NCBI GenBank assembly: GCA_964543035.1
Contig: CAZIVL010000001.1
Coordinates: 236,159-300,158, forward strand
From: an uncultured Gammaproteobacteria bacterium
GTDB taxonomy: Bacteria > Patescibacteriota > Microgenomatia > CAZETR01 > Amesbacteraceae
Reading direction: 5' to 3'
Length of the DNA: 64,000 bases
Position numbers and translations under genes: made by a program. This document shows, one piece after another, positions 2 to 52,833 of this stretch (position 1 is its first letter; each line of letters begins with the position of its first letter). The notes under the pieces were generated by a model. The model did not search any database and was not told the origin of the DNA. It saw nothing but the letters and a program-made list of their open reading frames with translations.

Positions 2-1762
2 GGCCGTGCCGCCTTTGGATATCTGGCCTCAGATATTGATTGTGGATTCAAATTATTTAGGAGGGATATTCTCAAACGAGTTTCTCTTCCATCTGACGGA
101 GCAATGGTAGATACCCAGCTTTTTGCCGGAGCCAGGGCCCGGGGCATGAAAGTGGCTGAACTAGAAGTGACACATCTCCCCAGGACCGCAGGCAGTTCAA
201 CTGGAGGTAATTTCAAGGTGGCGGCCAAAGCAGGACTCGAGTTGCTCGCTTTCTGGTGGCAATTAAAGCAGGAAATCATGGTGGAGCAGGGGAGAGCAGT
301 GTTCCGCTGGGAAGCGATTTGGATCTTGCTCATTATCTTAGGTGGAGGGTTCTTGCGTCTATGGCAAATTGATCAGCACATGACTTTTTTGGGTGACGAA
401 GGTCGCGATGCCATCGTCATGCGCGAAATGGTCCTGGGAAATCATTTTCCCCTCATAGGCCCCGGCACTTCCATTGGCAACATGTACCTAGGCCCCCTCT
501 ATTACTATTTGATGGCTCCTTCTCTGGCTTTGGCAAGCGAGTCCCCTGCTGGTCCCTCGATATTTGTAGCCTTGATAGGTCTTGCCACCATTGGGCTTTT
601 GTGGTGGATTGTACGTCAATGGACGGGCAGAACTGCCGCCCTAGTTGTCTCTGCACTTTATGCCATCTCACCGACTATCATCACCTATTCCCGCTCATCA
701 TGGAATCCCAACGTCATGCCATTTTTCGCCCTTCTTACTATATATAGTGTCTGGAAGGTGAGTGCTCTTGGGTACTGGCGCTGGGCAGTCATTGGTGCTG
801 TCTCTTTCGCATTTGTGCTCAACTCTCATTATCTGGGCTTGATACTCGCTCCTGTGGTGGCCATCTTTTTGTTTTTTTCCAAAAAAAGCCCATCTTCTCC
901 CAGATATTTAGCCCTCTCAGCCGCCGCCTTTATTTTATTGATGAGCCCTCTGTTCTTCTTTGACCTCAGACACAACTGGATAAACACCAAGGCAATGACG
1001 CTATTTTTTACAGATCGTCAGACAACGGTCAATCTCAAAGCCTACAAAGCGATCCCCAATCTCTGGCCCATCTGGTTGGATTTCAATGCCAGTATGTTTG
1101 CCGCCAAAGACAGGTCCCTGGGCCTAGTTTCTGCAATCGCCGTCCCCGTTTTGCTCATAATATTTGCCCTAAAAAATTCCCAAAAGCTTCGCTCCAAAGA
1201 TTTTCTTTTGACAGTTTCGTGGCTTGGCGTGGGTCTAATAGGTCTCGGCCTGTACAAGCAGCACATTTATGACCACTACATGGGCTTTATATTTCCGGCG
1301 GTTTTTATCCTCCTGGCATACAGCCTAGATTATCTTTTGCAAAAAAAAATCACAGCCAAAATCGTGGGACTGGTCTTTGTATTTTTGTTGTTTCACAATC
1401 TTTCTCGCACTCCACTTCTGTCTGCCCCCAACCATCAGTTAGACCGGACCCGCCAGGTCGCAGAGCTAATTCACGAGGAGACAGCAGGTAGACCTTTTAA
1501 CTTGGCACTTCTGGCCAAGTCCAATTACGACGCCAGTTACAGATATTTTCTCTACCAAAACAATTCACCTCTTTTTACGGTTCATCAGCAGATCACAGAC
1601 CAGCTCTATGTCATCTGCGAGATCTCCAATTGTCAGCCCATAGGGAATCCTCTCTGGGAGATCGCCGCTTTTGGCTGGGCCAGGATTGATAGGGAATGGG
1701 AGTTCCCCTGGGGGGTCAAGGTCTATCGTCTGATACCCAATCCAGAGGGAAAAAGCTTATGA
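2..1762 (+). CDS. 5'-partial fusion protein: C-terminal part of a DPM1/GtrB/ArnC-like GT2 polyprenyl-phosphate sugar synthase fused to a polytopic GT-C-type membrane domain
   Basis: The frame is open from nt 2 with no stop. The N-terminal segment reads ...CGFKLFRRDIL...THLPRTAGSSTGGNFKV..., typical of the DPM1-like GT2 C-terminus. It continues without interruption into TM helices and a DEGRDAIVMREM...GPGTS...YY loop motif shared with the CDSs at 1759, 3206 and 19365. The first ATG is at 104, but the reading frame enters from upstream of the window. Confidence 0.6.
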   Translation, partial: GRAAFGYLASDIDCGFKLFRRDILKRVSLPSDGAMVDTQLFAGARARGMKVAELEVTHLPRTAGSSTGGNFKVAAKAGLELLAFWWQLKQEIMVEQGRAVFRWEAIWILLIILGGGFLRLWQIDQHMTFLGDEGRDAIVMREMVLGNHFPLIGPGTSIGNMYLGPLYYYLMAPSLALASESPAGPSIFVALIGLATIGLLWWIVRQWTGRTAALVVSALYAISPTIITYSRSSWNPNVMPFFALLTIYSVWKVSALGYWRWAVIGAVSFAFVLNSHYLGLILAPVVAIFLFFSKKSPSSPRYLALSAAAFILLMSPLFFFDLRHNWINTKAMTLFFTDRQTTVNLKAYKAIPNLWPIWLDFNASMFAAKDRSLGLVSAIAVPVLLIIFALKNSQKLRSKDFLLTVSWLGVGLIGLGLYKQHIYDHYMGFIFPAVFILLAYSLDYLLQKKITAKIVGLVFVFLLFHNLSRTPLLSAPNHQLDRTRQVAELIHEETAGRPFNLALLAKSNYDASYRYFLYQNNSPLFTVHQQITDQLYVICEISNCQPIGNPLWEIAAFGWARIDREWEFPWGVKVYRLIPNPEGKSL

Positions 1763-3216
1763 GACTAAAACACTGGTTTCTCGTGATTTCAGTTTTGTTA
1801 ATAGGCTTGTTTGTAAGAACTTACAAAACCCCTGAATATTTGGGATTTTGGTACGACCAAGGAAGGGACGCCCTGGTTATCTGGGATCTGATTTACAATC
1901 ACAAATTTTTTCTTATTGGTCCTACCACTGGCATCGAAGGAATCTTTCGGGGACCGTGGTACTACTGGCTCATCACCCCTTTTTACTTTTTGGGTCGGGG
2001 AGACCCTGTTTGGCCAGCCGTATTTTTGGCTTTTACCACGATAGTGGCTTCTGCCTTAAGTTTTGTGCTAGCCAAAAAAATTGCAGGGTTCAAAGCCGGA
2101 TTTCTAGCACTGGTTATCTCCTCTCTGTCTTACAACCTGGTCGGTTCCGCCCGTTGGCTATCAAACCCAACTCCGATGTTTATTATCTCAGCGAGTATTC
2201 TCTATTTTGTCTTCAAAGTAATCGATGGTCGCAAATCCGCCTACCTGCCCTTATCCTTTCTCCTCGGATTGTCGATGCAATTTGGATCAGCGGCAGAAGT
2301 ATTTTATTTTCCCGCCATCGCGGCCTTCGTGTTGATCAACAAAAAATTATGGCCAGACCTAAAGACAATCATTTTTTCATCAGTGCTCCTGATGATCCCC
2401 TTTACCCCTCAGATTATTTTTGATGTTAGGCACGAAGGCATCCTGAGTAAAAATACATCCAAATTCTTTGTGGATGATTCCAGCTTCAAACTGTCATTTA
2501 TAGATACAATTTCCGTGCGTCTGCCTTTTTATTACGATATGTTCAGCAAAAAATTATTCCCCATGGTCCAGTCATACTTTATTCCATTTGGAATACTTGC
2601 AATAGCATCGCTCATTATCAGATTCAAAAAACTATCACCTCATGAAAGTTTCTTAAGTCTATTGTTTTTTGCACCACTTGTCGGAATGTTATTTTTTCAT
2701 GGTAACGAGGGCAATGTCTATGACTACTATTTCACTGGCTACTATCTTGTATTTGTCATCTTGTTTTCCGTCAGTATTTCACAATTGTATTCAAAAAAGT
2801 TAGCCCTCGCCGTATGCCTAATTTTTTTGGGATTTTTCCTCAAACAAAATACTATCGAATTGACAAATTACATTAAAGCAGGAGAGGGGGCGTACATTAC
2901 CCTTGCTTCTGGCATTAAAGCAGTCGACTGGGTATACAAAGATGCAGCAGGTACCCCCTTCAACACCGATGCCTACGTCCCGCCGATGATCCCATATGCT
3001 TATGACTATCTGTTTTTATGGCGAGGGACCAAGGTTTTCAATACTCTTCCTACCAAAGAGTTGCTCCCTCTTCTATATACCATTCAAGAGCCGGATTCTA
3101 GGCAACAGACCTTGCTAAACTCATGGCGTACTCGTCAGTCTACATTTTCATCCATAGAATATACCTATATTGCAGGCCCTCTAATAGTCGAGCGAAGGCA
3201 ACGTCATGAAAAATAA
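1759..3216 (+). CDS. polytopic membrane glycosyltransferase, GT-C superfamily (ArnT/PMT-like, DxxRDA family paralog)
   Basis: 485 aa with multiple TM helices. N-terminal loop motif DQGRDALVIWDL...GPTTGIEG...PWYYW. ATGA start/stop overlap with the upstream CDS (ATG 1759, TGA 1760-1762). Paralog of 3206..4648 and 19365..20837. Confidence 0.7.
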   Translation: MRLKHWFLVISVLLIGLFVRTYKTPEYLGFWYDQGRDALVIWDLIYNHKFFLIGPTTGIEGIFRGPWYYWLITPFYFLGRGDPVWPAVFLAFTTIVASALSFVLAKKIAGFKAGFLALVISSLSYNLVGSARWLSNPTPMFIISASILYFVFKVIDGRKSAYLPLSFLLGLSMQFGSAAEVFYFPAIAAFVLINKKLWPDLKTIIFSSVLLMIPFTPQIIFDVRHEGILSKNTSKFFVDDSSFKLSFIDTISVRLPFYYDMFSKKLFPMVQSYFIPFGILAIASLIIRFKKLSPHESFLSLLFFAPLVGMLFFHGNEGNVYDYYFTGYYLVFVILFSVSISQLYSKKLALAVCLIFLGFFLKQNTIELTNYIKAGEGAYITLASGIKAVDWVYKDAAGTPFNTDAYVPPMIPYAYDYLFLWRGTKVFNTLPTKELLPLLYTIQEPDSRQQTLLNSWRTRQSTFSSIEYTYIAGPLIVERRQRHEK

Positions 3217-4648
3217 GTCCATACTCATCTGCATAGTCTTACTCGCCTTGTTTGCCAGGTCATATCAGCTAGTGGAGAGGTTTGCCTATGATCATGATTC
3301 CGATCTCTCAGCCTGGATTTTTAAAGACATTGTCATTGATGGACACCTAAGGCTCATTGGCCAGCAGACATCATCATTGGGTCTTTTTATAGGTCCTCTC
3401 TTTTATTACTCACTCATCCCCTTTTACCTGGCCACGAATCTAGATCCCATCGGCACCTCAGTTTATCCCATAATTGTAGGTGTAGTCGGGGTCTTGAGTC
3501 TGTATTTTGTCACAGCCAAAACTACTGATAAAAAAACTGCTTTCTTTGCAGCTCTCATTTATGCCGGCTCTTTTTCTATCAGTAACACCGAACGGCAAGT
3601 CGTACCCACTGCCTGGATATTTGTTTGGTCCATCTGGTTTATCTACTCAGTACACCTTATTTATCAAGGAAAGAAGCTTGGACTCACTATCGCTGCTGTA
3701 TTACTGTCTCTGGTCTGGCATATCCAATTAGTGCTTGTGATTGCCGCAGTTCCCATGGGTATTGCCTGGATTTCGCGGTTCAAATCGTTTAAATTCAGAG
3801 ATTTTATTTTGCCGGTAGCGCTTCTAGTTATCATCTCAACCCCCCTGATTTTATTTGAGCTGCGTCACGATTTCATTCAGTTCAGGTCTTTATTCTTTTC
3901 GTCTCAGGTGGCAGAACAAGTTTCTCGAACATTAGCCCAAAAGTCGCTACATGTTTTGTCAGTTGCGGCAAAAAATGCCAATGCCATTTTTTGGGTTCGC
4001 CCAAACAATATTCCCGACTATGTTCTCCCCTTAGTAATTCTGATGGGATCAGGGATACTTTTGGTCAGAAAAAAGATATCCCGTCAATTGGTGTTAACTT
4101 TTGTTTTGTGGTTTGCAGTATTTATTGGTTTTTTTATCTTTCATCACATCAATCTTTCTGAGTACTACATCAACAGTCTGAACATTATGTGGATTATTTT
4201 GGCGGCGCTCGTGCTATCAAGACTTGGCAAATTAGGCAGTATTCTGCTAGTTGTTTTTTTGTTTTACAACCTTTACATAATAATTACTCTCCCTATAAAT
4301 CGTAGCGGTTATCTAAACAGAGTAGCAATGGTGGACTACATAGCAAAGGATGCAAAAGAACATAAGTTTCCTTGTATCGCCATCTCGTTTATGACCAATC
4401 CCGGTTATGAACTAGGGTATAGATATTTGTTCTGGCAGAAAAAAATGCATGTCAATCGCCCAAGTAGTAATAGCCCTGTCTACACAATTGTTTTTCCCCA
4501 CGGCCGGGCCAATCGTCTGGACTATACGAGTGGTGCTCTTGGACTGGTTCTGCCAGATTATTCTCGTTATAATGAATCCGGAGTAAGAGACAGTTGTTCA
4601 GGTGAGAACTCCAACGTTACTGATCCCATGTTTGGTTTTACAAAATGA
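3206..4648 (+). CDS. polytopic membrane glycosyltransferase, GT-C superfamily (DxxRDA family paralog)
   Basis: 480 aa hydrophobic protein. Motif DHDSDLSAWIFKD...GQQTSSLGLFIGPLFYY aligns with the neighbouring paralogs. 11-nt overlap with the upstream gene. Confidence 0.65.
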   Translation: MKNKSILICIVLLALFARSYQLVERFAYDHDSDLSAWIFKDIVIDGHLRLIGQQTSSLGLFIGPLFYYSLIPFYLATNLDPIGTSVYPIIVGVVGVLSLYFVTAKTTDKKTAFFAALIYAGSFSISNTERQVVPTAWIFVWSIWFIYSVHLIYQGKKLGLTIAAVLLSLVWHIQLVLVIAAVPMGIAWISRFKSFKFRDFILPVALLVIISTPLILFELRHDFIQFRSLFFSSQVAEQVSRTLAQKSLHVLSVAAKNANAIFWVRPNNIPDYVLPLVILMGSGILLVRKKISRQLVLTFVLWFAVFIGFFIFHHINLSEYYINSLNIMWIILAALVLSRLGKLGSILLVVFLFYNLYIIITLPINRSGYLNRVAMVDYIAKDAKEHKFPCIAISFMTNPGYELGYRYLFWQKKMHVNRPSSNSPVYTIVFPHGRANRLDYTSGALGLVLPDYSRYNESGVRDSCSGENSNVTDPMFGFTK

Positions 4649-5394
4649 CACCCTACTTATCCGTCATCATCCCCTCATACAACGAAGAAGACAACCTAAA
4701 TAGAGGTACACTCGATGTTGTCATTGCCTACTTGGAAAAACAGCCGTATCCCTGGGAAGTGATCCTTGTAAACGATGGCTCTACTGATTCCACAGCCCAG
4801 ATGTTGTCTGACTTCTCAAAATTTCAGAAGCATGTTCGCTTTATAGACAATCCTCATCAAGGCAAAGCCCAAACTGTTATTACTGGGGTTCTGGCGGCCG
4901 AGGGAGAAATCATTCTTTTTACAGACATGGACCAGGCTACTCCCATAACCGAGTTCGACAAATTTTTACCCAAGATAGAAGAAGGTCATGACATCATTAT
5001 TGGTTCTAGGGCCAACCGTGAAGGAGCTCCCTTGTTTAGAAAGATCCTGGCCTTTGGTATGGTGACGCTTCGAACGCTTATCCTCAATCTTCCCGTCCGG
5101 GATTCCCAGTGTGGCTTCAAAGCCTTTACTCGCGATGCAGCCGTCAAGATTTTTACAAAGATGAAAGAGCTGCGACCGTACAAGGTAATCGAGGGTCCGG
5201 CAGTAGACCCTGGTTTTGATGTGGAAATGATCTATCTCGGTCGCAAGCTGGGTTACAAGATTGTCGAAGTTCCCGTATCCTGGCGCCATCAAGAAAGTAG
5301 AAGAGTGAGCTTTATAAAAGATGCCAAAGCCGGCCTCATGGGACTTTTAGTTGTCCGCCTCCGCTCCCTCACCAACGCCTATAAGCTCAGATAA
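4645..5394 (+). CDS. GT2 glycosyltransferase, DPM1/GtrB/ArnC-like polyprenyl-phosphate sugar synthase
   Basis: N-terminus LSVIIPSYNEEDNL, then VILVNDGSTDST, then DMDQATP (DxD) and QCGFKAF. ATGA overlap at 4645-4648. Confidence 0.8.
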   Translation: MTPYLSVIIPSYNEEDNLNRGTLDVVIAYLEKQPYPWEVILVNDGSTDSTAQMLSDFSKFQKHVRFIDNPHQGKAQTVITGVLAAEGEIILFTDMDQATPITEFDKFLPKIEEGHDIIIGSRANREGAPLFRKILAFGMVTLRTLILNLPVRDSQCGFKAFTRDAAVKIFTKMKELRPYKVIEGPAVDPGFDVEMIYLGRKLGYKIVEVPVSWRHQESRRVSFIKDAKAGLMGLLVVRLRSLTNAYKLR

Positions 5395-5400
5395 GAGATT

Positions 5401-6153
5401 ATGAGTCCAAAACTGTCCATCGTTATCCCGGCTTACAATGAAGCAAAAAGCTTTCGATCTGGCATGCTGGACTCGGGCCTAGATTATCTCAAGTCGGTCA
5501 ATTATTCTTACGAAGTATTGTTTATAAACGATGGCTCGACCGACGACACGAAAGAACTTCTCGAGGGTCTCGCAAAAAAAGACAAACATTTCAAAGTCAT
5601 CACCATAAATCACGGAGGCAAAGCCAGTGCCGTCACGGCTGGAGTTCTGGCGGCCCAAGGCGAAATAGTATTATTTACCGACTTTGATCAATCCACTCCT
5701 CTGTATCAGGCAGAATCTTTTTTGAGATCTCATGATCTGGGGTCAGATGTCGTGATTGGGGTTAGGGGTGGGGGAGTAAGCACCAAGCAAGACACCTGGG
5801 TCAGAAAAGTCAGAAGTGCAATCTTTGTCACCCTTGTTCAGATTATTGCCCTGCCAGGAATCATTGACACTCAATGTGGCTTCAAGTCCTTCAAAAACGG
5901 TCTTGCCAAAAAAATATTTTCCAGTCTCAAAGTAAGCTTGCCTACTGGTGTAGTAACGGGAGGCTATATGGGGGCCTTTGATGTCGAAGTTCTCTTTTTG
6001 GCTCGCAAATACGGAGCAAATATTGCCCAGATCCCAGTCACCTGGATCAAATATCCCTCAGACAGATTAAATATCTGGAAGGAACCACTCCAAATGCTCA
6101 TCGATACAATCAAGGTCCGCCTCTGGGGTATACTAAGAAAGTACGATGCTTAA
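5401..6153 (+). CDS. GT2 glycosyltransferase, DPM1/GtrB-like (tandem paralog of 4645..5394)
   Basis: LSIVIPAYNEAKS, VLFINDGSTDDT, TDFDQSTP, QCGFKSF. Tandem duplicate of the preceding gene. Confidence 0.8.
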   Translation: MSPKLSIVIPAYNEAKSFRSGMLDSGLDYLKSVNYSYEVLFINDGSTDDTKELLEGLAKKDKHFKVITINHGGKASAVTAGVLAAQGEIVLFTDFDQSTPLYQAESFLRSHDLGSDVVIGVRGGGVSTKQDTWVRKVRSAIFVTLVQIIALPGIIDTQCGFKSFKNGLAKKIFSSLKVSLPTGVVTGGYMGAFDVEVLFLARKYGANIAQIPVTWIKYPSDRLNIWKEPLQMLIDTIKVRLWGILRKYDA

Positions 6154-7642
6154 GAAGTCTATTTTTATTTGTTTCCTGATCGCAGCAGCAGCAATCTTTT
6201 TACGTCTATACAACGTGGGTTTATGGCCTGTTTTTGCTGATGAATCCATCTATGTACGCTGGTCCCAGGTCATGCGGGCCGAAAGCACCCTCAGATTTCT
6301 TCCACTTTCCGATGGTAAACAGCCTCTGTTTATGTGGGCGACCATCCCCTTTTTCAAAATTATTTCCGATCCACTAGTGGCCGCCCGTTTTTTGTCAGCT
6401 CTTACCGGAATTTTTACAACTGCAGGCATAGCCCTTCTTTCTTGGCTAACTCTAAAAAATCTTCGCATCACATTCTGGACAGCCGCGATCTGGGCGACTG
6501 TTCCCTACTCAGTTTTTTTTAGTCGCATGGCTTTGGTAGATAGCATGCTCTGTATGTTTATCGTATGGGGATTGAGCCTAAGCGTTCTATCTATTCAAAA
6601 ACAGCGCTTAGATATGGCCATGATAGCCGGATTCTTTTTTGGGTTCGCGTGGCTCACAAAATCTCCCGCCACCATTGCCCTGATGTTATTACCTTCAGTA
6701 CTAATTTTTATCCCTCACAAAAATCTAAAAACTATTCTGTATTCACTATTCTATATTCTTACCCCAATCTTAATTGCCTTTGGCATGTACAACATCTTGC
6801 GCTTAGGCCCTGAGTTTCATCAGATTGCTTTGCGAAATGCCGATTATGTCTTTACTCTGCCTGAGATTCTAAAACACCCCCAAGATCCATTACTCCCTCA
6901 CCTTAAAGATAGTGTCACGTTTTATTTATATCTCCTCACACCTTTTGGTGTTTTATTGTCTTTGTGGGGTATATTGGCTGGGGGCAAATCGCACGTCTGG
7001 ACCAAGCTATTTTTTGGGCTTTGGTTTTTGCTACCCATCATTGCACTATCAGCCGTAGCCCGTGCTTTTACCGCCCGATATATTCTCTTTACAGCGCCTT
7101 TTGCCGTGATTCTGGCTGCTCACGCCGTGGAGCATATAGGCCAGCACACCAAAAGACACTTACTCTCAGCCCTGACTGGAGCCTTGATCATAATTCCTTC
7201 TCTTTGGATTGATCATCTGATGCTGACAAATCCTGCGAATATGCCCATGGCCAGGATTGAGCGCTCCGGGTATCTAGAAGAGTGGACTGCCGGGTTCGGG
7301 CTCAAAGAAGTATCTGCTCGCATTCAAACAGCGGCCGAAAAACGTCCAGTTATAGTGGGGTCTGAGGGTTTTTTTGGCACTCCATTTGACGGACTCCAAA
7401 TGTATCTCAACGGTGTACCAAATGTTCGAGTAATTGGAGTCGGAGTCTGGATAGACTCAGTCCACGAAAAGTTAATCAACGCCTCGGTCGAAAACCAGAT
7501 ATTTTTAGTGGTCAACTCCAGTAGGTTCCATCACGAAAAACCAGAAGATTTGGGACTCAAACTTTTGGCCAGCTACCCAAAGGCTGTTCGCCCAGATGGT
7601 ACCCAGGAATATTTGTTGTTTTTTGAATACATACCAAAATAA
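6146..7642 (+). CDS. ArnT/PMT-like GT-C membrane glycosyltransferase (GT83/GT39-like)
   Basis: 498 aa polytopic protein. N-terminal ADESIYVRWSQVMRAE...GKQPLFMW resembles the ArnT DE-motif loop. It follows two Und-P-sugar synthase-like GT2 genes, an ArnC-ArnT-like arrangement. Confidence 0.7.
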   Translation: MLKKSIFICFLIAAAAIFLRLYNVGLWPVFADESIYVRWSQVMRAESTLRFLPLSDGKQPLFMWATIPFFKIISDPLVAARFLSALTGIFTTAGIALLSWLTLKNLRITFWTAAIWATVPYSVFFSRMALVDSMLCMFIVWGLSLSVLSIQKQRLDMAMIAGFFFGFAWLTKSPATIALMLLPSVLIFIPHKNLKTILYSLFYILTPILIAFGMYNILRLGPEFHQIALRNADYVFTLPEILKHPQDPLLPHLKDSVTFYLYLLTPFGVLLSLWGILAGGKSHVWTKLFFGLWFLLPIIALSAVARAFTARYILFTAPFAVILAAHAVEHIGQHTKRHLLSALTGALIIIPSLWIDHLMLTNPANMPMARIERSGYLEEWTAGFGLKEVSARIQTAAEKRPVIVGSEGFFGTPFDGLQMYLNGVPNVRVIGVGVWIDSVHEKLINASVENQIFLVVNSSRFHHEKPEDLGLKLLASYPKAVRPDGTQEYLLFFEYIPK

Positions 7643-7682: not shown

Positions 7683-9395
7683 ATGAAAAAAGACCTTTTA
7701 ATTTTATTAATTCTTATCATCCCCAGCTTTGCAATTTTGTTGCAAAAGGGTTATTTCTCCATGCACGATGATCTTCAGTCCATGCGCCAGTACCAGCAAG
7801 ACTTGTGTTTTGCAGACGGCCAGATCCCCTGTCGTTGGGTGCCGGATATGGGTTATGGTTACGGCTACCCTTTGTTCAATTTTTACCCCCCACTTCCATA
7901 TCTCTTAGGACAACCGTTACGTCTTTTAGATATCTCTTACATCGACATTGTAAAGATTGTGGGAATTATGGGTTGGGTCAGTTCAGCAGTCTTCATGTAT
8001 CTTTTGGGGCGAGAGTTTTGGGGGCGAAGAGGGGGATTAGTCTCGGCAGTCTTTTATACATATGCTCCTTATCATTCGGTTGATTTTTATGTCCGGGGAG
8101 CCATGAATGAGTTTTGGGCCCTAGTCTTCTACCCCGCCATTTTTTATAGCACTTATCGCCTCATATTGTCATCCCGACCAAGCGAAAGCGCGTGGAGGGA
8201 TCCCTCGACCCGGCTCGGGATGTCAAGCGTGAACGTGAAGTGGATTGTATTCACGTCTCTCTCCGTCACAGGTCTCATGCTTTCTCACAACCCCATGCTC
8301 ATGATCTTCGCCCCGGTTCTCATCGGCTGGTGCCTGCTCTGGCTGATAAAGTTTAAAACCATTCAACCATTTGGCCATTTATCCATTGCGGCCATATGGT
8401 CCGCAGGCCTGGCCGCCTTCTTCACTCTTCCGGTCGTTTTTGAGCAGCAGTTTGTCAGCATCTGGACACTCACCTCAGGATACTTCAATTATCTGGCTCA
8501 CTTTTTGGACATCAAGCAGATTTTTATAAATATCAATTGGGGTTATGGATCATCTGAGCTGGGACCTACTGACAGCATGTCATTTGCCATTGGTTACTTG
8601 CACTGGATAGTGCCATTGGTAATCTTGATTTTTTCCCTTACAAAAAAACTTCGGCCATATATAGCCATAATTCTTTATTCCATATTCATAATTCTTGTTT
8701 CTCTATTTATGTCACATTCAAAATCGACGTTTTTATGGCAGCATCTAAGACCCCTGGAGTTGCTACAGTTCCCCTGGCGTTTTCTGACTTTGACCATTTT
8801 TGGAGCCTCGTTTGCTGCAGGAGCCATTGCTCCAGCCGTAAACAAAAAATTATTGCTCACAGCACTTATAACCTCAGTCATAATACTAAATGGTAATTAC
8901 TTTCGTCCCAGGGATTGGTATCCAGATATGACTGACCAAGCAAAGTTTTCCGGCAAGTCGTGGCAACTTCTTGTTACCTCTGGCATCTTTGATTACTTAC
9001 CCATCTGGGCACCATTCCCCCCGGCAGACCCAGCCGGCGCTGACTTAAACATAGTTCAAGGCGAAGGGGAGTATACCCGAGTTCTAAAATCATCCAATAA
9101 GCAGGTTTATAAAGTCGATGTTATTTTGGACTCAGCCACAATTGAACTGCAGACATATTACTTTCCCGGTTGGCGGGCATATGTAGATGGAGTAGAACAG
9201 CAGATTGACCCCACTCGCGACCCTCTTTTGGGGCGCATCCAGGTCGACTTGTCTTCTGGATCCCACCAAGTTGAGATCCGGTTTACAAACACCCCGATTC
9301 GTCTCCTTGCAAACTCCCTATCTGTCATCTCCTGGGCGGCAATGGTTGGTATAATAATTGTATGGATGTGGAGGAGATCTCTTCTGAAGAGTTAA
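7683..9395 (+). CDS. YfhO-like polytopic membrane protein (GT-C-like), short-form family B
   Basis: 570 aa with many TM helices. N-terminal periplasmic motif MHDD...CRWVPDMGYGYGYPLFNFY is shared with 35412..37031. C-terminal YFPGWRAYVDG...terminal TM signature is shared with the 767-aa YfhO-like protein at 20783..23086. Confidence 0.6.
   Translation: MKKDLLILLILIIPSFAILLQKGYFSMHDDLQSMRQYQQDLCFADGQIPCRWVPDMGYGYGYPLFNFYPPLPYLLGQPLRLLDISYIDIVKIVGIMGWVSSAVFMYLLGREFWGRRGGLVSAVFYTYAPYHSVDFYVRGAMNEFWALVFYPAIFYSTYRLILSSRPSESAWRDPSTRLGMSSVNVKWIVFTSLSVTGLMLSHNPMLMIFAPVLIGWCLLWLIKFKTIQPFGHLSIAAIWSAGLAAFFTLPVVFEQQFVSIWTLTSGYFNYLAHFLDIKQIFININWGYGSSELGPTDSMSFAIGYLHWIVPLVILIFSLTKKLRPYIAIILYSIFIILVSLFMSHSKSTFLWQHLRPLELLQFPWRFLTLTIFGASFAAGAIAPAVNKKLLLTALITSVIILNGNYFRPRDWYPDMTDQAKFSGKSWQLLVTSGIFDYLPIWAPFPPADPAGADLNIVQGEGEYTRVLKSSNKQVYKVDVILDSATIELQTYYFPGWRAYVDGVEQQIDPTRDPLLGRIQVDLSSGSHQVEIRFTNTPIRLLANSLSVISWAAMVGIIIVWMWRRSLLKS
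8167..8225. repeat. GC-rich palindromic mini-element, copy 1, inserted in-frame in the 7683 CDS (encodes ...SAWRDPSTRLGMS...)
   Basis: Terminal inverted repeats tgtcatcccga at 8167-8177 and tcgggatgtca at 8215-8225. Internal 12-nt perfect palindrome gagggatccctc at 8195-8206. About 60% GC in a roughly 40% GC gene. The host protein carries a roughly 22-aa insertion relative to its paralog 35412 at this site. Confidence 0.6.
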
Positions 9396-10819
9396 GGGTC
9401 GTAAAATCACGAGCAGTCCGCGGCATGGCGACACTTACGGGTGGGGGATTGATCCTGACCTTCATCTCAGGTATCGGGGTATTGCTCCTGACTACTTATC
9501 TGGGACCAAAAGAATTTGGCCTCTACGCCTTGATAGGCAGTATTATTGTAATCTTAAGCTACTTTTCAGACATTGGTTTGGCGGCCTCTCTTATCCAAAA
9601 AAAAGAAAGTCCCACCAAGTCCGATCTCCAAACGACATTTACCATTCAGCAAACTCTAGTGTTACTAGGTATCGCCGTAGCCCTTATATTGTCTCCCGCA
9701 ATCAGAGCTTATTACTCCCTTGGTTTGCCTGAGTACTATCTCTACCTGTCTCTTCTTCTTAGCTTCTTTCTCTCTTCACTCAAATCTATTCCTTCGGTCA
9801 TGCTCGAGAGATCACTGCGTTTTGACCGTATTATGTTAGTTCGAATTGCCGAGTCTTTGACATTCAATGTCACCGCTGTGGTTCTGGCTATCCAAGGCAT
9901 GGGTCTTATGTCCTATGTCCCGGCCGTCATTGCTCAAGGAATAGTGGGACTAGTGCTCATTTGGCTATTTCATCCTTGGCCAGTAGGTCTGGCTTTCTCC
10001 AGAGCCAGTCTGCACAAACTATTGCACTTTGGAGTGCCCTATCAGACAAATTCTCTCTTGGCAGTTGCCAAAGACCAGGTGGTAAATCTCTTTTTGTGGA
10101 AGATAGTAGGGCCCGTCGGCATGGGTCTGGCAAATTGGGGTTTTTATTATAGTCAAATGCCCCAAAGACTGATCATGGACAATGCTACTCGGGTCGCCTT
10201 TCCTGCCCTTTCTCGTCTGCAGGATCATCCTCAGGAGTTCAAAGCGGCCACCGAAAAATTATTACTATTTGTGTGTTTAGTAGTATTTCCCACACTAGTG
10301 GGAATCAGTCTACTGTGGTCTCACTTGGCATACTTGGTTCCCAAATGGTACAAATGGCAACCGGCACTTATCCCACTGTATCTTTATTGCTTTAGCGCCG
10401 CCATTTCCTGTCTGTCTACTCCTCTGACAAACACTCTATATGCAGCAGGTAAAGCAAAGATTGTGACCGGACTCATGGTTATGTGGCTGGTTTTAGAGTG
10501 GCTGCTCAAGCCCACTATGGCCGCAAGTTTTGGCTATCTCGGCGTGGCTTACGCCACAGCCATTATTTCATTTTCTTCTCTAGTGCCCTTTTTTATCGCT
10601 CAAAGAATTATTCGCTTTAACATACTAAAGAGCCTATTTACTCCTGTCGTATCTACACTAATCATGATTATATTTGCAGTATGGTCGCATTCTTTGGGGG
10701 TAATACCTTCAGTCACAATTGCCACACTTGCCTATATCAGTGCCGTCGCCCTGTTTGGTGGAAAGAAATTATATGCCCAAGTTAGGCCATTCTACGAACA
10801 CTTCCGTGCAAAAATATAA
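9362..10819 (+). CDS. Wzx-like oligosaccharide/polysaccharide flippase (MOP superfamily)
   Basis: 485 aa with about 12-14 TM helices. N-terminus ...VKSRAVRG.ATL.GGG..L...I.G.GVLLLTTYLGPKEFGLYA matches the Wzx/Polysacc_synt N-terminal signature. Confidence 0.7.
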   Translation: MDVEEISSEELRVVKSRAVRGMATLTGGGLILTFISGIGVLLLTTYLGPKEFGLYALIGSIIVILSYFSDIGLAASLIQKKESPTKSDLQTTFTIQQTLVLLGIAVALILSPAIRAYYSLGLPEYYLYLSLLLSFFLSSLKSIPSVMLERSLRFDRIMLVRIAESLTFNVTAVVLAIQGMGLMSYVPAVIAQGIVGLVLIWLFHPWPVGLAFSRASLHKLLHFGVPYQTNSLLAVAKDQVVNLFLWKIVGPVGMGLANWGFYYSQMPQRLIMDNATRVAFPALSRLQDHPQEFKAATEKLLLFVCLVVFPTLVGISLLWSHLAYLVPKWYKWQPALIPLYLYCFSAAISCLSTPLTNTLYAAGKAKIVTGLMVMWLVLEWLLKPTMAASFGYLGVAYATAIISFSSLVPFFIAQRIIRFNILKSLFTPVVSTLIMIIFAVWSHSLGVIPSVTIATLAYISAVALFGGKKLYAQVRPFYEHFRAKI

Positions 10820-12416
10820 ACTTTGGTTACTTCTTTTTATTGGTACCATTTGTTGGTCGGCGACAATGGTAAAAAGCGGATTGATTTACGACTACGGTAT
10901 GGGTTTTTGGGGCGCCAATGGTCACGATGGCATTTGGCATATATCTCTTATCAAGTCGCTATCCCAGGGCTCAATGCAAATGCCTATTTTTGCAGGCGAG
11001 GGTATCAAAAATTATCATATTGGCTTTGATCTATTAGTAGCTGCTCTTCATACCGTTTCTCGCATTCCTGTTGTAACCTTGTACTTTCAGATACTGCCAC
11101 CACTGTTTGCATTCGCAATTGGACTTCTTACTTATCTTCTTACAAAAAATATTTGGTCGGTATTCTTTGTATATTTTGGCGGTTCATGGGCCTGGCTGTT
11201 CGGCCGAGGCGAGTCCACCTTTTGGTCTCAGCAAGCTATATCAACTCTTATCAATCCTCCACTGGCCCTTTCTCTTATATTGTTACTAGTAGGACTTATT
11301 TTAATTAGGTCAAACAAAGAGTTATTGGCAACCCTCTTTTTTGTAATTGCCGGTTTTGTAAAAGTATATGCCGGATTACTGGCCCTTGCAGCATTGTTAG
11401 TAGTAGGTCTTATAAAAGACCGTAAGTTTATCAAGATTTTTATCTTTACCCTTATTTTTTCGGCTGCCATGTATCTTCCCCTAAATCGCAATTCCACAAG
11501 TCTTTTGGTCTGGCAACCGGGTTGGTTCCTCGAGACCATGATGGGGCTCTCAGATCGTCTAAACTGGCCGAGATTTTATTCCGCCATGACCAATTACCGC
11601 TTGGCGGACAATTGGCCAAAAGCGGTCTTGGCATACACAGTCGCATTTTTAATCTTTTGGTTTGGCAATATGGGCACCCGAGGCATAAAAGAAATAAGTG
11701 TTTTAAAAGACTTAAAAAACATCAGAAATATTTCTTCCGAACATCTATTTATATGGACAATAATCATAGCCGGGGGAATAGTTCCCATGTTTTTTTTGCA
11801 AAAAGGCACTCCCTGGAACACTATTCAATTCTTTTACTACTCACTATTTTTTTCATCAGTTCTTGCGGGTCTTTCAGTAGAGTATCTGTTGTCAAAAATT
11901 AAAAATTCCAAATTCATAATTTTAGCCTCAGTACTCATAGTAGTTCTCACCATTCCCACGACAATCATTAGTCTCAAAGATATTTACTTGCCAGGCAGAC
12001 CTCCCGCCATGATTAGCACTCGGGAGTTAGAGGCTCTTAACTTTTTGGCTACTCTCCCCAAAGGCACAGTCCTTACACCGCCTGTTGTGGTCAATCCTTA
12101 TGCCAAAGCTCCCAGACCACTGTATCTATATGAGTCTACTGCGTACGTTTCCGCCATTTCAGGCCAACCTGTCTTTATGGAAGATGAGGTCAATCTGAAC
12201 ATTACAGATTATGCATGGGAAACCCGGAAAAGTGATGTAAAGTCATTATTTGAACAAACCGATAAAGAAAAAGCTAAAAAATTTGTGAATGATAACAACA
12301 TAAGTTATGTTTATCTTCCTCGAATCCATGAGACTAGACCATATCTCAGCGATACACAGATGGGGATGAAAAACATATTTGAAAATTCCGAAGCAGCCAT
12401 TTGGCAACGACAATGA
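10773..12416 (+). CDS. polytopic membrane protein with C-terminal soluble domain; function unknown (possible GT-C-like)
   Basis: The ORF is open from a TTG at 10719. The first ATG is at 10773, preceded by GGTGGAAAG. Motifs include IYDYGMGFWGANGHDGIWHIS. The roughly 400-aa hydrophobic region is followed by a roughly 130-aa hydrophilic tail. Confidence 0.5.
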   Translation: MPKLGHSTNTSVQKYKLWLLLFIGTICWSATMVKSGLIYDYGMGFWGANGHDGIWHISLIKSLSQGSMQMPIFAGEGIKNYHIGFDLLVAALHTVSRIPVVTLYFQILPPLFAFAIGLLTYLLTKNIWSVFFVYFGGSWAWLFGRGESTFWSQQAISTLINPPLALSLILLLVGLILIRSNKELLATLFFVIAGFVKVYAGLLALAALLVVGLIKDRKFIKIFIFTLIFSAAMYLPLNRNSTSLLVWQPGWFLETMMGLSDRLNWPRFYSAMTNYRLADNWPKAVLAYTVAFLIFWFGNMGTRGIKEISVLKDLKNIRNISSEHLFIWTIIIAGGIVPMFFLQKGTPWNTIQFFYYSLFFSSVLAGLSVEYLLSKIKNSKFIILASVLIVVLTIPTTIISLKDIYLPGRPPAMISTRELEALNFLATLPKGTVLTPPVVVNPYAKAPRPLYLYESTAYVSAISGQPVFMEDEVNLNITDYAWETRKSDVKSLFEQTDKEKAKKFVNDNNISYVYLPRIHETRPYLSDTQMGMKNIFENSEAAIWQRQ

Positions 12417-27349: not shown

Positions 27350-29188
27350 ATGTGTGGCATTACAGGAATAGTAGATTTTAAAAAGACTCAGATCCCCAAA
27401 AAAATCTTGTCTGGTATGAATGCCCAGATTGCTCACCGAGGTCCGGACTCTGACGGTTTTTATTATGATGATCACGTGGGGTTGGCCGCCAGAAGGCTCA
27501 GCATCATCGATCTCGTAACTGGAGACCAGCCCATCTTCAATGAGGATAAGTCGGTTGCAATCGTCTTCAATGGAGAAATTTACAATTATCAGTCACTTCA
27601 CGCTGGTCTCGCAAAATTAGGCCACAAATTCAAGACCAAGTCGGATACCGAGACTCTGGTTCACGCCTACGAAGAATATGGGTATGAAATGCTCTCAAAA
27701 TTAAACGGCATGTTTGCCTTTGCTATCTGGGATAAGAAAAAAGCCAAAGTATTTATAGGTCGCGATCACGCTGGCATCAAGCCTCTCTATTATTTTGTAA
27801 ATGGTCCCCAACTTATTTTTGGTTCCGAATTAAAAACTATTCTTGCCTTCCCAGGAGTCCCAAGACGTTTGAATTCCGAGAGCTTTGATCTTTACTCTTT
27901 CTTTGGATATATCCCGGGAAGCAAATCAATCTTTTCAGATATCCACAAGCTCCCAGCAGGTCACTATCTGACCTTTGATTCCACGGGTCTTCAGATCAAA
28001 AAATATTATGATCTCGAAAATCTAATTGCACCTGATACCCACGATCTTGACGTGCTTTTTGACAATTCCCTCAGGCTGCAGTCAATTGCCGATGTTCCTC
28101 TGGGAGTTCTTTTGAGTGGGGGAATAGATTCATCTCTGATTGCCTACTATCTGACTCGTCAAAAACACAATGTCAAAAGTTTCTCTATCTCATTTTCCGA
28201 AAGCTCATTTGATGAAAGTTCCTATGCGAGACTAATATCGAAACAGCTGGGAACAACTCATTTCGAAGAAGAATTTACATCCTCAAAAATGCTGGATATT
28301 TTTACAGACATTACCGAAAAAATGGATGAACCATTGGCAGATCCTTCCTTATTCCCCACTTACGCCGTGAGCAAATTAGCCAAAAAACATGTGAAAGTTG
28401 CACTATCAGGCGATGGTGGTGACGAATTGTTTGCAGGCTATCCTACATACCAAGGTCATTTTCTAGCAAGCCTCATTCCAAAGCTTCCAAGTTCAGTCAT
28501 TAGATCATTGGTTACGTCTCTCAAGCAGTTCAACTCTTCTACCCAAAATTATCCGACTCTCGAAGTGCTGTTAAACGGTATATCGGGATTAGACAAGAGC
28601 CCTATCGAGCGCCATCTAAACTGGATGAGCAATCAGTCATTAGGACTTACCAAAATAGGCAATTTACCTGCACTAATGCAAATACCTTTCGATCCAAAAC
28701 AGATGCTCAGATCTATCCTCAAGCTTGATTTTCAGACCTATCTAGAAGGGGATTTACTCGTCAAATCAGATCGGGCCTCCATGTTCAATTCACTAGAGCT
28801 CAGAGTGCCATTTTTGGATCAGGATATTATCAAATATGCTTACACGACCGACTCTTCTCACGCCGACTTTTTTACGACCAAAAAGCAGTTGCGATCACTT
28901 CTCTCCCAGAAACTCCCTTCTCAAATACTAGATAGGGGCAGTACTTTCATGGGTCTAAAACTTTTTCGCAAAAAAGGCTTTGGAATACCACTTTATAAGT
29001 GGATGACCACAGATCTCAGACCTCTAGTCGACCAGCATCTAGAGAATCCAGACCTAGATGATTTGTTTGATATGCCCACCGTAAACAGATTATGGCAGCG
29101 GACCTTGTCCAGGCTTGGAAACCACAGTAAACTGGTCTGGATGGTTGTAATGTTTTCTGCTTGGCACAAAAACTGGCTACGCTCATGA
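27350..29188 (+). CDS. asparagine synthase (glutamine-hydrolysing) family amidotransferase, AsnB-like
   Basis: MCGITGIV N-terminal nucleophile Cys2. GATase_7 region RGPDS...RRLSIIDL. Synthetase region SGGIDSS (PP-loop). 612 aa. The ATG immediately follows the upstream TAA. Confidence 0.85.
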   Translation: MCGITGIVDFKKTQIPKKILSGMNAQIAHRGPDSDGFYYDDHVGLAARRLSIIDLVTGDQPIFNEDKSVAIVFNGEIYNYQSLHAGLAKLGHKFKTKSDTETLVHAYEEYGYEMLSKLNGMFAFAIWDKKKAKVFIGRDHAGIKPLYYFVNGPQLIFGSELKTILAFPGVPRRLNSESFDLYSFFGYIPGSKSIFSDIHKLPAGHYLTFDSTGLQIKKYYDLENLIAPDTHDLDVLFDNSLRLQSIADVPLGVLLSGGIDSSLIAYYLTRQKHNVKSFSISFSESSFDESSYARLISKQLGTTHFEEEFTSSKMLDIFTDITEKMDEPLADPSLFPTYAVSKLAKKHVKVALSGDGGDELFAGYPTYQGHFLASLIPKLPSSVIRSLVTSLKQFNSSTQNYPTLEVLLNGISGLDKSPIERHLNWMSNQSLGLTKIGNLPALMQIPFDPKQMLRSILKLDFQTYLEGDLLVKSDRASMFNSLELRVPFLDQDIIKYAYTTDSSHADFFTTKKQLRSLLSQKLPSQILDRGSTFMGLKLFRKKGFGIPLYKWMTTDLRPLVDQHLENPDLDDLFDMPTVNRLWQRTLSRLGNHSKLVWMVVMFSAWHKNWLRS

Positions 29189-44735: not shown

Positions 44736-45515
44736 ATGAAGCCCTATCTATCTGTGGTTTTACCAGCATACAAACAAGAAAAACATATTGTAAAAAATGT
44801 GAGAAGGCTCAAAGAAGTCTTAGAAAAGTTAAATGTAACCTATGAAATAATTAGTGTTTCAGATGGACGTTTAGACAAAACTCAGTCTAATCTAAAAAAA
44901 GCAAAGATGCGAAATGTTATTTCAACAGGTTATGAGCAAAACAGAGGAAAAGGACAAGCAGTGAGGTTTGGTATGGCAATGGCTAGAGGAAAAATAGTTG
45001 GCTTTGTCGATTCAGGTGATCTTGATTACTCAGTTATTCCATTATTATTTGAGCATATGAAATGGTACGAAGCAGACGTGATTCTTGCTTCAAAGAGACA
45101 TCCTGCATCCAAAGTCAGTTATCCTTGGCAAAGAAGAATAATTTCATGGGTATATCAGATTATGGTAAAAATTATGTTCGGGCTAAATCTTAAAGACACA
45201 CAAGTCGGAATGAAGTTTTTTAAGAAAGAAGTTATTGAAAAAGTGCTCCCCAGAATTTTAGTAAAGGAATTTGCTTTCGACATAGAGATGTTAGCCGTCG
45301 CGAATTATCTAGGTTTCAAGAGAATTTACGAGGCTCCAGTAAAATTGTCTCTTGATTTTAACAAAGCCTCATCTGTCATCTCAAAAGGATTCGTACGTAC
45401 AGTTTTTCGCATGATTTGGGATACAATATCTGTATTCTACAGATTAAGGATTCGAAGATACTATGACGATGCAAACAAAAAAAATTGGCAACCCAATATG
45501 TATCTAGAATGGTAA
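44736..45515 (+). CDS. GT2 glycosyltransferase
   Basis: LSVVLPAYKQEKHI...EIISVSDGRLDKT...FVDSGD. Confidence 0.7.
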   Translation: MKPYLSVVLPAYKQEKHIVKNVRRLKEVLEKLNVTYEIISVSDGRLDKTQSNLKKAKMRNVISTGYEQNRGKGQAVRFGMAMARGKIVGFVDSGDLDYSVIPLLFEHMKWYEADVILASKRHPASKVSYPWQRRIISWVYQIMVKIMFGLNLKDTQVGMKFFKKEVIEKVLPRILVKEFAFDIEMLAVANYLGFKRIYEAPVKLSLDFNKASSVISKGFVRTVFRMIWDTISVFYRLRIRRYYDDANKKNWQPNMYLEW

Positions 45516-51272: not shown

Positions 51273-52112
51273 ATGACAGATCGTCAAAATCAAAAATTAG
51301 AGCAACTTCTTGCCAACACCGGGGACATCGCTCTAAAAAGAAGAGCTCGAAGGATAATTCAAGAAATTGACCCAAAGCCAGGAGACAAGATTCTTGATGT
51401 TGGATGTGGCGATGGATATTATTTGTATTTGTTGTCAAATTTGGGTGTGCGTCTTTCCTTGGTAGGTACGGATTTGGATTCGGCAGGGATGGCCAGTGGT
51501 AAGAAAAATCTTAAAGGAAAACGTATTCGCTTTATTGAAGCAGATCTTATGAAGCCACTTCCATTCAAAAAGAATTACTTTGACAAAGTTGTCATGTCTG
51601 AAGTAGCAGAACACTTGCCCAACGACCTTACCGGTCTGAAAAATGTTCAAAAGAGTCTAAAACCTGGTGGAGTTCTCTGTCTTTCCGTGCCAAACAAAAA
51701 TTATCCCTTGCTCTGGGACCCGGTCAATTGGTTTCTAGAAAGAATTACCGGAAGACACATTGTTTCTGGTTTTTGGGCTGGTCTTTGGAATCAGCATTTA
51801 CGGTTATACACACCCATTCAAATAAGTGATGTTGTCAGGCGAGCAGGTTTTAAAATTTCTTGTCTTGAAAGTCTTACTTTTTGGTCTTTGCCCTTCAATC
51901 ACAATCTCATAAACTTTGGGGCCAGAAGGTTACATGGAGGAGCTCTGTCAAAAGCAGATTCAGACGCCATAAATAAGTTTAAACCCGCAAAAAGCAGGCC
52001 GTGGTACATAGAATTATTTTTTAGGGTATCTCAAGCAATAGACAGCCTGAATGATATTTGGACACCTAGCCCAGATTGGGGTGTGGGTGTATTTATCAAG
52101 GCAATAAAATGA
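51273..52112 (+). CDS. class I SAM-dependent methyltransferase
   Basis: ILDVGCGDGYY (motif I) ... VVMSEVAEHL. The ATG directly follows the upstream TAA. Confidence 0.75.
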   Translation: MTDRQNQKLEQLLANTGDIALKRRARRIIQEIDPKPGDKILDVGCGDGYYLYLLSNLGVRLSLVGTDLDSAGMASGKKNLKGKRIRFIEADLMKPLPFKKNYFDKVVMSEVAEHLPNDLTGLKNVQKSLKPGGVLCLSVPNKNYPLLWDPVNWFLERITGRHIVSGFWAGLWNQHLRLYTPIQISDVVRRAGFKISCLESLTFWSLPFNHNLINFGARRLHGGALSKADSDAINKFKPAKSRPWYIELFFRVSQAIDSLNDIWTPSPDWGVGVFIKAIK

Positions 52113-52833
52113 TAAGAACATCATTATCAGTAATTCTTCCCGCCTACAATGAAGAGGAAAACATCTCGTTCATAATTAAAAACGTCGAGGAATATCTAAA
52201 AAAAAAATTAAGGATTTTGAAATAATTGTTGTTGATGACGGCAGCACGGACAATACATCTGTCAAAGTAAAAAAACTTATATCTAGTAGATCGTATCTTC
52301 GTCTGATTAGCTATACTCCAAATAAGGGCTATGGTCATGCACTGCGAACAGGTTTTTTAAGTGCAAGAAAATCATTAGTGTTCTACACAGATTCTGATAG
52401 TCAATTTGATATTTCTGATTTAGACATTGTCCTGCCGATGGCCAATTATTACGATATTGTGGCCGGATACAGGCTAAATCGACAAGATCCATTGATGCGG
52501 ATATTTATAGCATTCGTCTACAATCGTTTAATAAAATTAACATTAGGCTTGTCTATCAGAGACGTCGATTGTTCTTTTAAAATATATAATCGAAAAGTAT
52601 TTGAGTCAATTACAATGACCTCTGATACTGGTCTAATAGATGCGGAGGTTTTAATCAAAGCGAAAAAAAAAGGGTTTTCTATAACGCAAGTAGGAGTGCG
52701 TCATTTTCCGAGAGTAAGGGGAAAAACAATGTACGAAGTAGGACAAAGAAATCACTTTTTTGCATTTGTCCGTCCTCAAGTTATTATTGATTTACTTTAC
52801 GAAATATTTAAGCTAAAAAAGGAAGTTTTATGA
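52109..52833 (+). pseudogene. GT2 polyprenyl-phosphate sugar synthase (DPM1/GtrB-like) disrupted by a frameshift in an A10 homopolymer (52198-52207)
   Basis: Frame 0 from ATG 52109 reads MIRTSLSVILPAYNEEENISFIIKNVEEYLKKK and then stops at 52223. Frame +2 is open from 52180 and reads ...KKKIKDFEIIVVDDGSTDNT...YTDSDSQFD...CSFKIY to 52833. One extra A (A11) would restore YLKKKIKDFEIIVVDDGS. The ORF track lists only the 3' fragment (52378..52833). Confidence 0.7.

Follow-up and report, generated by a model that had tools for sequence, protein, structure and literature searches.

A natural fusion of a polyprenyl-phosphate-class GT2 domain with a GT-C membrane domain in Microgenomates bacteria

How a glycosyltransferase that loads sugar onto a lipid carrier in the cytoplasm could share one chain with a membrane enzyme that uses lipid-linked sugars outside, and how the sugar would then cross the membrane, is the question raised by the first gene of a 64,000-nucleotide stretch of DNA (the window; contig CAZIVL010000001.1, positions 236,159 to 300,158). 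The host of the gene is an uncultivated Microgenomates bacterium, a member of the candidate phyla radiation (CPR). The original prediction, made from the letters of the window, read its opening frame as the tail of a family GT2 synthase of the DPM1/ArnC/GtrB class that runs without a stop into a polytopic GT-C domain. That the fusion is real, and that its two domains are a GT2 and a GT-C, is almost certain, and the pair is of the kind in which a cytoplasmic lipid-carrier sugar loader is joined to a membrane enzyme using lipid-linked sugars outside; the fusion is unusual but not mysterious.

The window opens inside the gene. Positions 2-1762 of the plus strand form a single stop-free frame of 586 codons that ends with TGA at 1760-1762, and the first ATG of this frame gives an open reading frame (ORF) at 104..1762. 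The motifs on which the prediction relied all lie in this frame, CGFKLFRRD and HLPRTAGSSTGGNFKV within its first 75 codons, and DEGRDA at nt 395-412, followed by GPGTS and YYY. The upstream part is provided by two sources. P0001, a protein of 735 aa in a public protein collection, is 100% identical across the whole window fragment and carries the precomputed Pfam domains GT2 (PF00535) and PMT_2 (PF13231), and L001, an 8.2-kb Logan contig from a separate assembly, shares 3970 nt with the window at 0 mismatches and adds the 149 N-terminal codons, the window beginning at residue 150. Both complete the GT2 domain, in agreement with the prediction, for which an upstream part of another nature would have been fatal. 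Between the GT2 tail and the first transmembrane (TM) helix, where a hidden stop or frameshift had been considered, the frame is open, L001 is identical, and about 34 diverged species have a single ORF. The polytopic part, estimated earlier at about 480 aa, measures 490 aa (P0001 aa 246-735) and is joined to the GT2 in one frame. With residues numbered as in P0001, the gene reads as follows:

2..1762, plus strand: C-terminal 586 codons and stop of the 735-aa GT2-GT-C fusion (P0001 aa 150-735), from the translation, P0001 and L001
2..211, plus strand: C-terminal half of the GT2 catalytic domain (aa 150-219), from invariant columns of alignment A1 and the PfDPMS and ArnC alignments
212..286, plus strand: long amphipathic helix (aa 220-244), counterpart of the DPMS/GtrB interface or juxtamembrane helix 2, from the AlphaFold2 model and the PfDPMS alignment
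278..280, plus strand: in-frame ATG (M242) at the domain junction, with AGGA upstream at 270-273, from the sequence
305..1405, plus strand: GT-C membrane domain (aa 251-617), about 11 predicted TM helices, N-terminus predicted inside
395..409, plus strand: D281-E282-G-R-D285, candidate catalytic acidic motif in the first predicted extracytoplasmic loop, from the alignment and its position after TM1
1418..1759, plus strand: C-terminal alpha/beta domain (aa 622-735), predicted extracytoplasmic, from AlphaFold2 strands and helices at 628-728 and the topology count

The N-terminal part (aa 1-245) belongs, as predicted, to the DPM1/ArnC/GtrB class of GT2 enzymes. Its best sequence matches in the PDB are the dolichyl phosphate mannose synthase of Pyrococcus furiosus (PfDPMS; 1.2e-16 over aa 9-269) and Salmonella ArnC (5.5e-16), followed by GtrB (6e-9), and its top NCBIfam model is ArnC (4.9e-19), with further matches to the models of the halobacterial dolichyl-phosphate hexose transferase, PgfS, AglJ and PpgS. 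An AlphaFold2 model built from 37 homologs (predicted local distance difference test score, pLDDT, 85; predicted template modelling score, pTM, 0.73) gives a GT-A fold, and the solved structures closest to it are polyprenyl-phosphate glycosyltransferases, with ArnC, DPMS and GtrB taking Foldseek ranks 1-24.

Residue equivalences were read from HMMER alignments to PfDPMS and ArnC, invariance was counted in an alignment of 37 fused homologs (A1), and the roles of the PfDPMS residues and the list of motifs were taken from the literature (PMC5526996; PMC12992685). In PfDPMS, Asp91 and Gln93 are metal ligands, Arg117 and Arg131 bind phosphate, and Arg202 lies in the acceptor loop (PMC5526996). Their counterparts in the fusion protein, D102 and Q104, R129 and R139, and R210, are invariant (37/37). 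The part of the domain encoded in the window (nt 2..211, plus strand) contains the invariant D160-x-D162-x-G-F-K and the acceptor loop R210-x-x-G213-x-S-T216, that is, R-x-x-G-x-S-T, the PfDPMS version being R-x-x-G-x-S-K. By its sequence and fold matches the GT2 is a member of the broad polyprenyl-phosphate class, and by its NCBIfam scores it belongs to no characterised equivalog.

The C-terminal part (aa 246-735), also in line with the prediction, scores 43.3 bits against PMT_2 (aa 165-316 of the window fragment), above the gathering cut-off of 26.1, and its predicted fold is of the GT-C type, the nearest folds being all transferases, ArnT among them. The likeness to ArnT is found at the level of the fold only, with no match to an ArnT model in NCBIfam and an E value of 0.41 for the family profile against the ArnT sequence. 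The sole NCBIfam match of this part is TIGR03663 (Agl23; E 6.4e-13, aa 256-425), which spans profile positions 3-163 of 435 and reaches 48.5 bits against a cut-off of 126.25. A Pfam scan of the whole GT-C part gives only PMT_2 and a weak EpsG match, without a MIR domain, and the protein is therefore not a PMT proper.

Hydropathy and a positive-inside count predict about 11 TM helices with short K/R-rich inside loops and a cytoplasmic N-terminus. TM1 is followed by an acidic outside loop of 62 residues that carries D281-E282-G-R-D285, in which D281, E282 and D285 are invariant (37/37). An Asp-Glu pair in loop 1 is a hallmark of PMT-type GT-Cs. The last 114 residues form the predicted outside domain, with an equally invariant pair of cysteines, C688 (nt 1616-1618) and C693 (nt 1631-1633); its position is C-terminal, unlike that of MIR, which sits in the large luminal loop of PMT proper.

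The two domains meet in a way that is typical for the class. The GT2 domain has no TM helix, in sequence or fold, and the AlphaFold2 model places helices at 137-157 and 220-244 (amphipathic) before TM1 (251-269) of the GT-C domain. The second helix, of 25 residues, aligns with the PfDPMS region that precedes its TM1 and is followed by a linker of 6 residues and then by the TM1 of the GT-C domain, which faces the DPMS TM1 in the same alignment. A soluble glycosyltransferase with two amphipathic helices and TM segments, on one or several chains, is the conserved layout of the class (PMC4728340), and the fusion protein has this layout, its TM segments coming from the GT-C domain. At the junction, W234, W235 and E244 do not vary, and the linker, too, is conserved. 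No stop codon stands ahead of the junction ATG at 278-280, and an internal start at this codon, from which a separate GT-C would be made, was rejected, methionine occupying the column in only 13 of the 37 fused homologs. Elsewhere in the class the anchor consists of two TM helices (ArnC, GtrB), of four (PfDPMS), or of DPM2/DPM3 in the case of human DPM1 (PMC12992685). Because the GT2 has no TM helix of its own, the fusion is best read as a device that anchors and co-localises it.

What such a protein would do can be approached through the three-component systems GtrA/GtrB/Gtr(type) and CsbB/GtcA/YfhO, in which a synthase, a flippase and then a GT-C transferase act (PMC11127046). The gene is probably, though with real reservations about the mechanism as a whole, a natural fusion of the first and third components of extracytoplasmic glycosylation of the Gtr/Arn/CsbB-YfhO type. 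Beside the fusion gene, the locus has the following features:

L001 1512-2651, plus strand, outside the window: GT2-GtrA_DPMS_TM gene, from the domain match
1759..3216, plus strand: GT-C paralog 2, 485 aa (phmmer E 7.7e-29, PMT_2, L001 gene call)
3206..4648, plus strand: GT-C paralog 3, 480 aa (phmmer E 5.5e-20, weak PMT_2)
4645..6153, plus strand: stand-alone GT2 genes 4645-5394 and 5401-6153, each of about 250 aa (Pfam GT2; phmmer E 5.1e-24 and 8.6e-17)
9362..10819, plus strand: candidate flippase of the Wzx/MOP type (Polysacc_synt_3; Pfam E 5.5e-45)

The GT2 would move a sugar from a nucleotide sugar onto polyprenyl phosphate at the inner leaflet, with the GT-C part taking the role of membrane anchor that is given elsewhere to the helices of ArnC, GtrB or PfDPMS or to the partners of human DPM1. 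The lipid-linked sugar would be flipped by the GtrA-like domain of the GT2-GtrA gene, by the Wzx-like protein or by the GT-C bundle itself, and the flipped donor would be used outside by the fused GT-C, and probably also by the two tandem paralogs, on an acceptor at the cell surface. By being on one chain, the two enzymes would be held at a 1:1 stoichiometry and in proximity.

Contrary to the proposal, a fusion does not channel undecaprenyl phosphate (Und-P)-linked sugar across the membrane, and the crossing still requires a flip. The topology poses no paradox, since the N-terminus of the GT-C domain is cytoplasmic by hydropathy; of the question how the intervening flip occurs, the supposed topological difficulty thus falls away, but the need for a flip stays, with the three candidates named above. 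The GT2-GtrA_DPMS_TM gene is present in 72/85 loci and is a flippase candidate. It has been proposed that PfDPMS flips its product by means of its GtrA-like TM domain, and the translocator of dolichyl phosphate mannose and of Und-P-sugars is still unresolved (PMC12992685). In the three-component set of this locus, synthase and GT-C are fused, and the GtrA_DPMS_TM and Wzx-like genes are flippase candidates only.

Among the known systems, ArnC/ArnT, which act with ArnE/F in adding aminoarabinose to lipid A, are similar in that a cytoplasmic GT2 that charges Und-P is paired with a GT-C acting outside, ArnC being among the best matches of the GT2 in sequence and fold and ArnT among those of the C-terminal domain. 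They differ from the fusion in being separate proteins, ArnC having two TM helices of its own, and the fusion protein is the ortholog of neither (68.5 bits against a cut-off of 529 for ArnC; E 0.41 for ArnT). The Gtr and CsbB/GtcA/YfhO systems follow the same logic, and a GtrA-type domain is encoded in conserved synteny with the fusion, but here components one and three are on one chain. The locus further departs from the Gtr systems in that its GtrA-like domain is fused to a second, canonical DPMS-like GT2, and in that three tandem GT-C paralogs follow the GT2.

PfDPMS shares with the fusion the combination of a catalytic domain with a fused membrane domain, which in type-III enzymes is a 4-helix GtrA-like bundle (PMC12992685) and here a GT-C domain of 490 aa; moreover, where PfDPMS has DADxQH, the fusion GT2 reads P/H-A/S-D-N-Q, and the counterparts of Ser135 and Lys178 differ. 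In human DPM1-DPM2-DPM3, as in the fusion, a synthase without TM helices depends on a membrane partner. Mycobacterial Ppm1, another synthase in need of such a partner, is a fused D1-D2 protein in M. tuberculosis and is split into Ppm1 and Ppm2 in M. smegmatis, so that here too both states are met among related organisms. For DPM1 and Ppm1 the partner is, in contrast to the fusion, a small membrane subunit or a domain of the Lnt type and no GT-C able to consume the product. A further parallel, drawn from NCBIfam models and a published study (PMC11182771), is haloarchaeal Agl22/Agl23, in which a short GT2 that synthesises dolichyl-phosphate hexose is combined with a polytopic PMT-like protein that handles this lipid-sugar. 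The matches to the corresponding models, of which we infer NF041391 to be Agl22, are weak but significant, and they fall far under the cut-offs (58.3 against 375; 48.5 against 126.25); besides, Agl22 and Agl23 are separate proteins of archaeal hosts. The fusion is thus built of familiar parts and is topologically unsurprising, and it is conserved and useful.

Several points weigh against the assignment of this mechanism. The GT2 reaches no NCBIfam equivalog cut-off, the best being ArnC with 68.5 bits, and its active site appears not to be canonical in the alignments, because the first aspartate of the DXD motif is lost and the PfDPMS phosphate ligands Ser135 and Lys178 are replaced by R143 and A183. 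At the position of that first aspartate (Asp89 of PfDPMS, which touches the mannosyl O2 and is no metal ligand; PMC5526996), the 37 homologs have Pro (27), His (9) or Ser (1) and in no case Asp, P0001 itself having Pro. The GT-C family profile finds nothing significant among the PDB sequences and is remote from every solved GT-C, the assignment as GT-C resting on Pfam and the predicted model, and its topology comes from a crude hydropathy count. The enzyme activities, the sugar and the acceptor of the fusion protein are inferred, and the canonical DPMS-like GT2-GtrA protein encoded two genes upstream may be an alternative source of donor for the GT-C.

The explanation that competes best with a synthase-transferase fusion, although an unlikely one, is that the GT-C-like domain serves mainly as anchor and flippase for the lipid-sugar of the GT2 and is not, or not only, a transferase, in parallel to haloarchaeal Agl22 with Agl23. 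The one NCBIfam model matched by the domain is named "flippase activity-associated protein Agl23", the GT2 matches the 213-position model of the halobacterial dolichyl-phosphate hexose transferase (E 5.3e-16; 6.3e-18 for a split GT2), and in liposomes purified Agl23 is reported to have moved a lipid-linked oligosaccharide, Agl23 also rescuing yeast rft1-delta (PMC11182771); the flipping proposed for the PfDPMS TM domain points the same way. The similarity to TIGR03663, however, besides its low score, is limited to a generic N-terminal GT-C module that is also matched by PMT_2. A transferase acting on an external acceptor would need such features as the domain has, namely an invariant DE motif, outside loops that are conserved and a conserved outside C-terminal domain with a pair of cysteines, and the nearest folds are all transferases. 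A still more doubtful extension makes the fusion a self-contained machine that makes, flips and transfers, in which a distantly Agl23-like GT-C bundle would both flip and use the product of its own GT2.

Less probable again is that the GT2 is not a polyprenyl-phosphate glycosyltransferase at all and glycosylates something else at the inner leaflet, e.g., a glycolipid or a lipid-linked oligosaccharide, the GT-C being used for a different step. The lost aspartate, the Arg and Ala in place of Ser135 and Lys178 and the scores far under every equivalog cut-off could be taken in this sense, and soluble GT2s, e.g., glucosyl-3-phosphoglycerate synthase, are among the fold matches. Yet DPMS, ArnC and GtrB are consistently the top matches in sequence and fold, before all other GT2s, R129, R139 and R210, which stand for the two arginines that bind phosphate and the one in the acceptor loop, do not vary, and the PfDPMS alignment extends past the interface helix into TM1. 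A decaying, inactive GT2 relic was also considered and rejected, as the GT2 is conserved no less than the GT-C part and all its other key residues are invariant; the mean identities within the clade of the 37 homologs, 65% for the GT2 and 58% for the GT-C, indicate a similar constraint on both domains.

With the reading of the GT2 as a synthase of the polyprenyl-phosphate class retained, its divergence in the clade of the window has a history of its own. The GT2 of the Amesbacteria-type fusion, with x-A/S-D-N-Q, forms its own long branch and has 35-42% identity to all other GT2 partners, which keep D-x-D-G-Q whether they are split or fused in the Daviesbacteria manner, while the GT-C domains of Amesbacteria, whether fused or split, share 55-60% identity and lie mixed together on the tree. 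The comparison points to different histories of the two domains, in which the GT2 was either replaced or changed fast after the fusion. It also suggests an altered donor sugar with respect to the split relatives, which is the simplest inference because the altered residue corresponds to a sugar contact of PfDPMS.

The fusion recurs in related genomes, as had been proposed for checking. One genome per species was scanned, giving 80 loci, the best of them 77% identical, and 74 loci were classified (72 from the scan together with L002 and L005), a locus being counted as fused when one stop-to-stop frame held both the GT2 and the GT-C motifs. About 34 of these species-level loci are fused, including L013, which is ended by the contig edge, and about 40 are split. 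In the split loci the GT2 and GT-C genes are adjacent or overlapping on the same strand. Fused and split loci alike have the same synteny, with trmD, the GT2-GtrA gene, a divergent gene of about 360 codons for a membrane protein, the GT2 and GT-C, and at least two further GT-C genes. The split GT2 proteins that were read as examples have 233-236 aa and no TM helix, overlap the GT-C start by 19 or 4 nt, and end with "...LWKKLR*" or "...LWYQLR*" at the point where the fused proteins carry on.

In the protein collection, about 90 clusters with both domains (710-745 aa, 52-89% identity) stand beside GT-C-only relatives of about 480 aa (53-62% identity). Among representatives at 50% identity about 10 are fused, the lowest with 30% identity, and the named ones are Daviesbacteria, Beckwithbacteria and Microgenomates; the named fused members as a whole belong to Amesbacteria, Woesebacteria, Daviesbacteria and Beckwithbacteria. 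A neighbor-joining tree of the GT-C domain, calculated without support values, has the fused state in at least four separate places. The fused state and a split pair of translationally coupled genes are freely interchangeable, and this alternation is classical Rosetta-stone evidence that the GT2 and GT-C proteins work together.

An assembly artefact is therefore excluded by the pattern of fused and split states across diverged loci, and the notion that sequencing error or a recent, pseudogene-like read-through merged two genes, for which the two separate overlapping genes of many relatives, the junction ATG with its AGGA and a homopolymer frameshift elsewhere in the window (52198-52208) might be cited, is hardly credible in view of the identical second assembly, the diverged DNA of the about 34 species with a single ORF, the homologs of 710-745 aa at 89%, 77% and about 60% identity, and the conserved junction.

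A natural GT2-GT-C fusion is not described in the searchable papers, a weak absence given their partial coverage, the sole match to "domain fusion" being a tagged construct, and the database names of these proteins are generic ("glycosyltransferase", "glycosyl transferase family 39"). Dozens of metagenome-assembled genome (MAG) records with this Microgenomates-specific locus, L006, L007 and L009 among them, carry the title "uncultured Gammaproteobacteria bacterium" or "Pseudomonadales", and a single one reads "Clostridia bacterium"; such titles look like placeholder or wrong taxonomy labels, the content and neighbours being those of Microgenomates.

The surroundings of the gene are rich in related enzymes. 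The two genes directly downstream are, as predicted, paralogs of the GT-C part, and the two stand-alone GT2 genes behind them are paralogs of the GT2 domain of the fusion, the second overlapping a further GT-C gene (6146-7642) by 8 nt. Consecutive genes of the cluster overlap by 4-11 nt (1759-1762, 3206-3216, 4645-4648, 6146-6153), with ATGA at 1759-1762 and 4645-4648, and these overlaps suggest translational coupling along the GT-C/GT2 array. Further features of the locus and the window are:

L001 2656-3738, minus strand, outside the window: polytopic membrane protein of about 360 aa, with YENFDGPYY after TM1, adjoining the fusion gene upstream
27350-29188: asparagine-synthase-like gene (AsnB-like amidotransferase)
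60544-62301, minus strand: carbamoyltransferase gene

The divergent gene for the membrane protein of about 360 aa adjoins the GT2/GT-C gene in 73/85 related loci. This protein gives the strongest matches in the locus (jackhmmer E ~1e-140) and belongs to no Pfam family, with a weak NCBIfam match to "cell surface glycopolymer formation" (45 bits against 150). The GT2 encoded at L001 1512-2651 has several hallmarks of type-III DPMS, namely DTDFQHPP, SRY and RDAGESK. Type-III DPMS has recently been described as an archaeal trait of hyperthermophiles (PMC12992685); the GT2-GtrA genes of CPR bacteria are look-alikes of it and may merit comparison with the type-III definition.

Another DPM1-like GT2 paralog, at 52110-52833 on the plus strand, is frameshifted within an A-run at about 52198-52208, its first ~35 codons (ATG 52110, MIRTSLSVILPAYNEE...) being in one frame and ORF 52378-52833, which matches the GT2 domain of the fusion with a phmmer E value of 2.7e-19, in another. 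The frameshift may stem from a sequencing error in the homopolymer, mark a pseudogene or reflect slippage-based switching.

In total, the window holds at least 13 genes of the GT-C type (PMT_2, PMT, YfhO, PTPS_related, GT87, GT-C_AftD), at least 15 GT2 genes and five GT4 genes, and also a 2OG-Fe(II) oxygenase and two methyltransferases. Among the large ORFs, some belong to no family, e.g., 7683-9395, 10719-12416 and 45485-47311. The whole window is a glycosylation island. This island measures at least 64 kb and apparently serves to glycosylate the surface of a CPR bacterium with a small genome, and it shows what such bacteria invest in.

GT2 synthases and GT-C transferases are large families that are hard to pair, and in a genome with a dozen or more GT-C genes, as here, the transferase supplied by a given synthase can usually not be named. 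A fusion that takes turns with an overlapping pair of genes is Rosetta-stone evidence linking one synthase to one transferase. It would also add a fourth solution for anchoring the synthase, beside TM helices of its own, DPM2/3 subunits and a GtrA-like domain, and it suggests that GT2s of this class without TM helices need a polytopic partner. As a single polypeptide, the fusion is a compact object in which to test the proximity of synthase and user and the flipping by a GT-C of its own donor, and if the latter were true, the translocation of polyprenyl-phosphate monosaccharides could be reconstituted with a single polypeptide.

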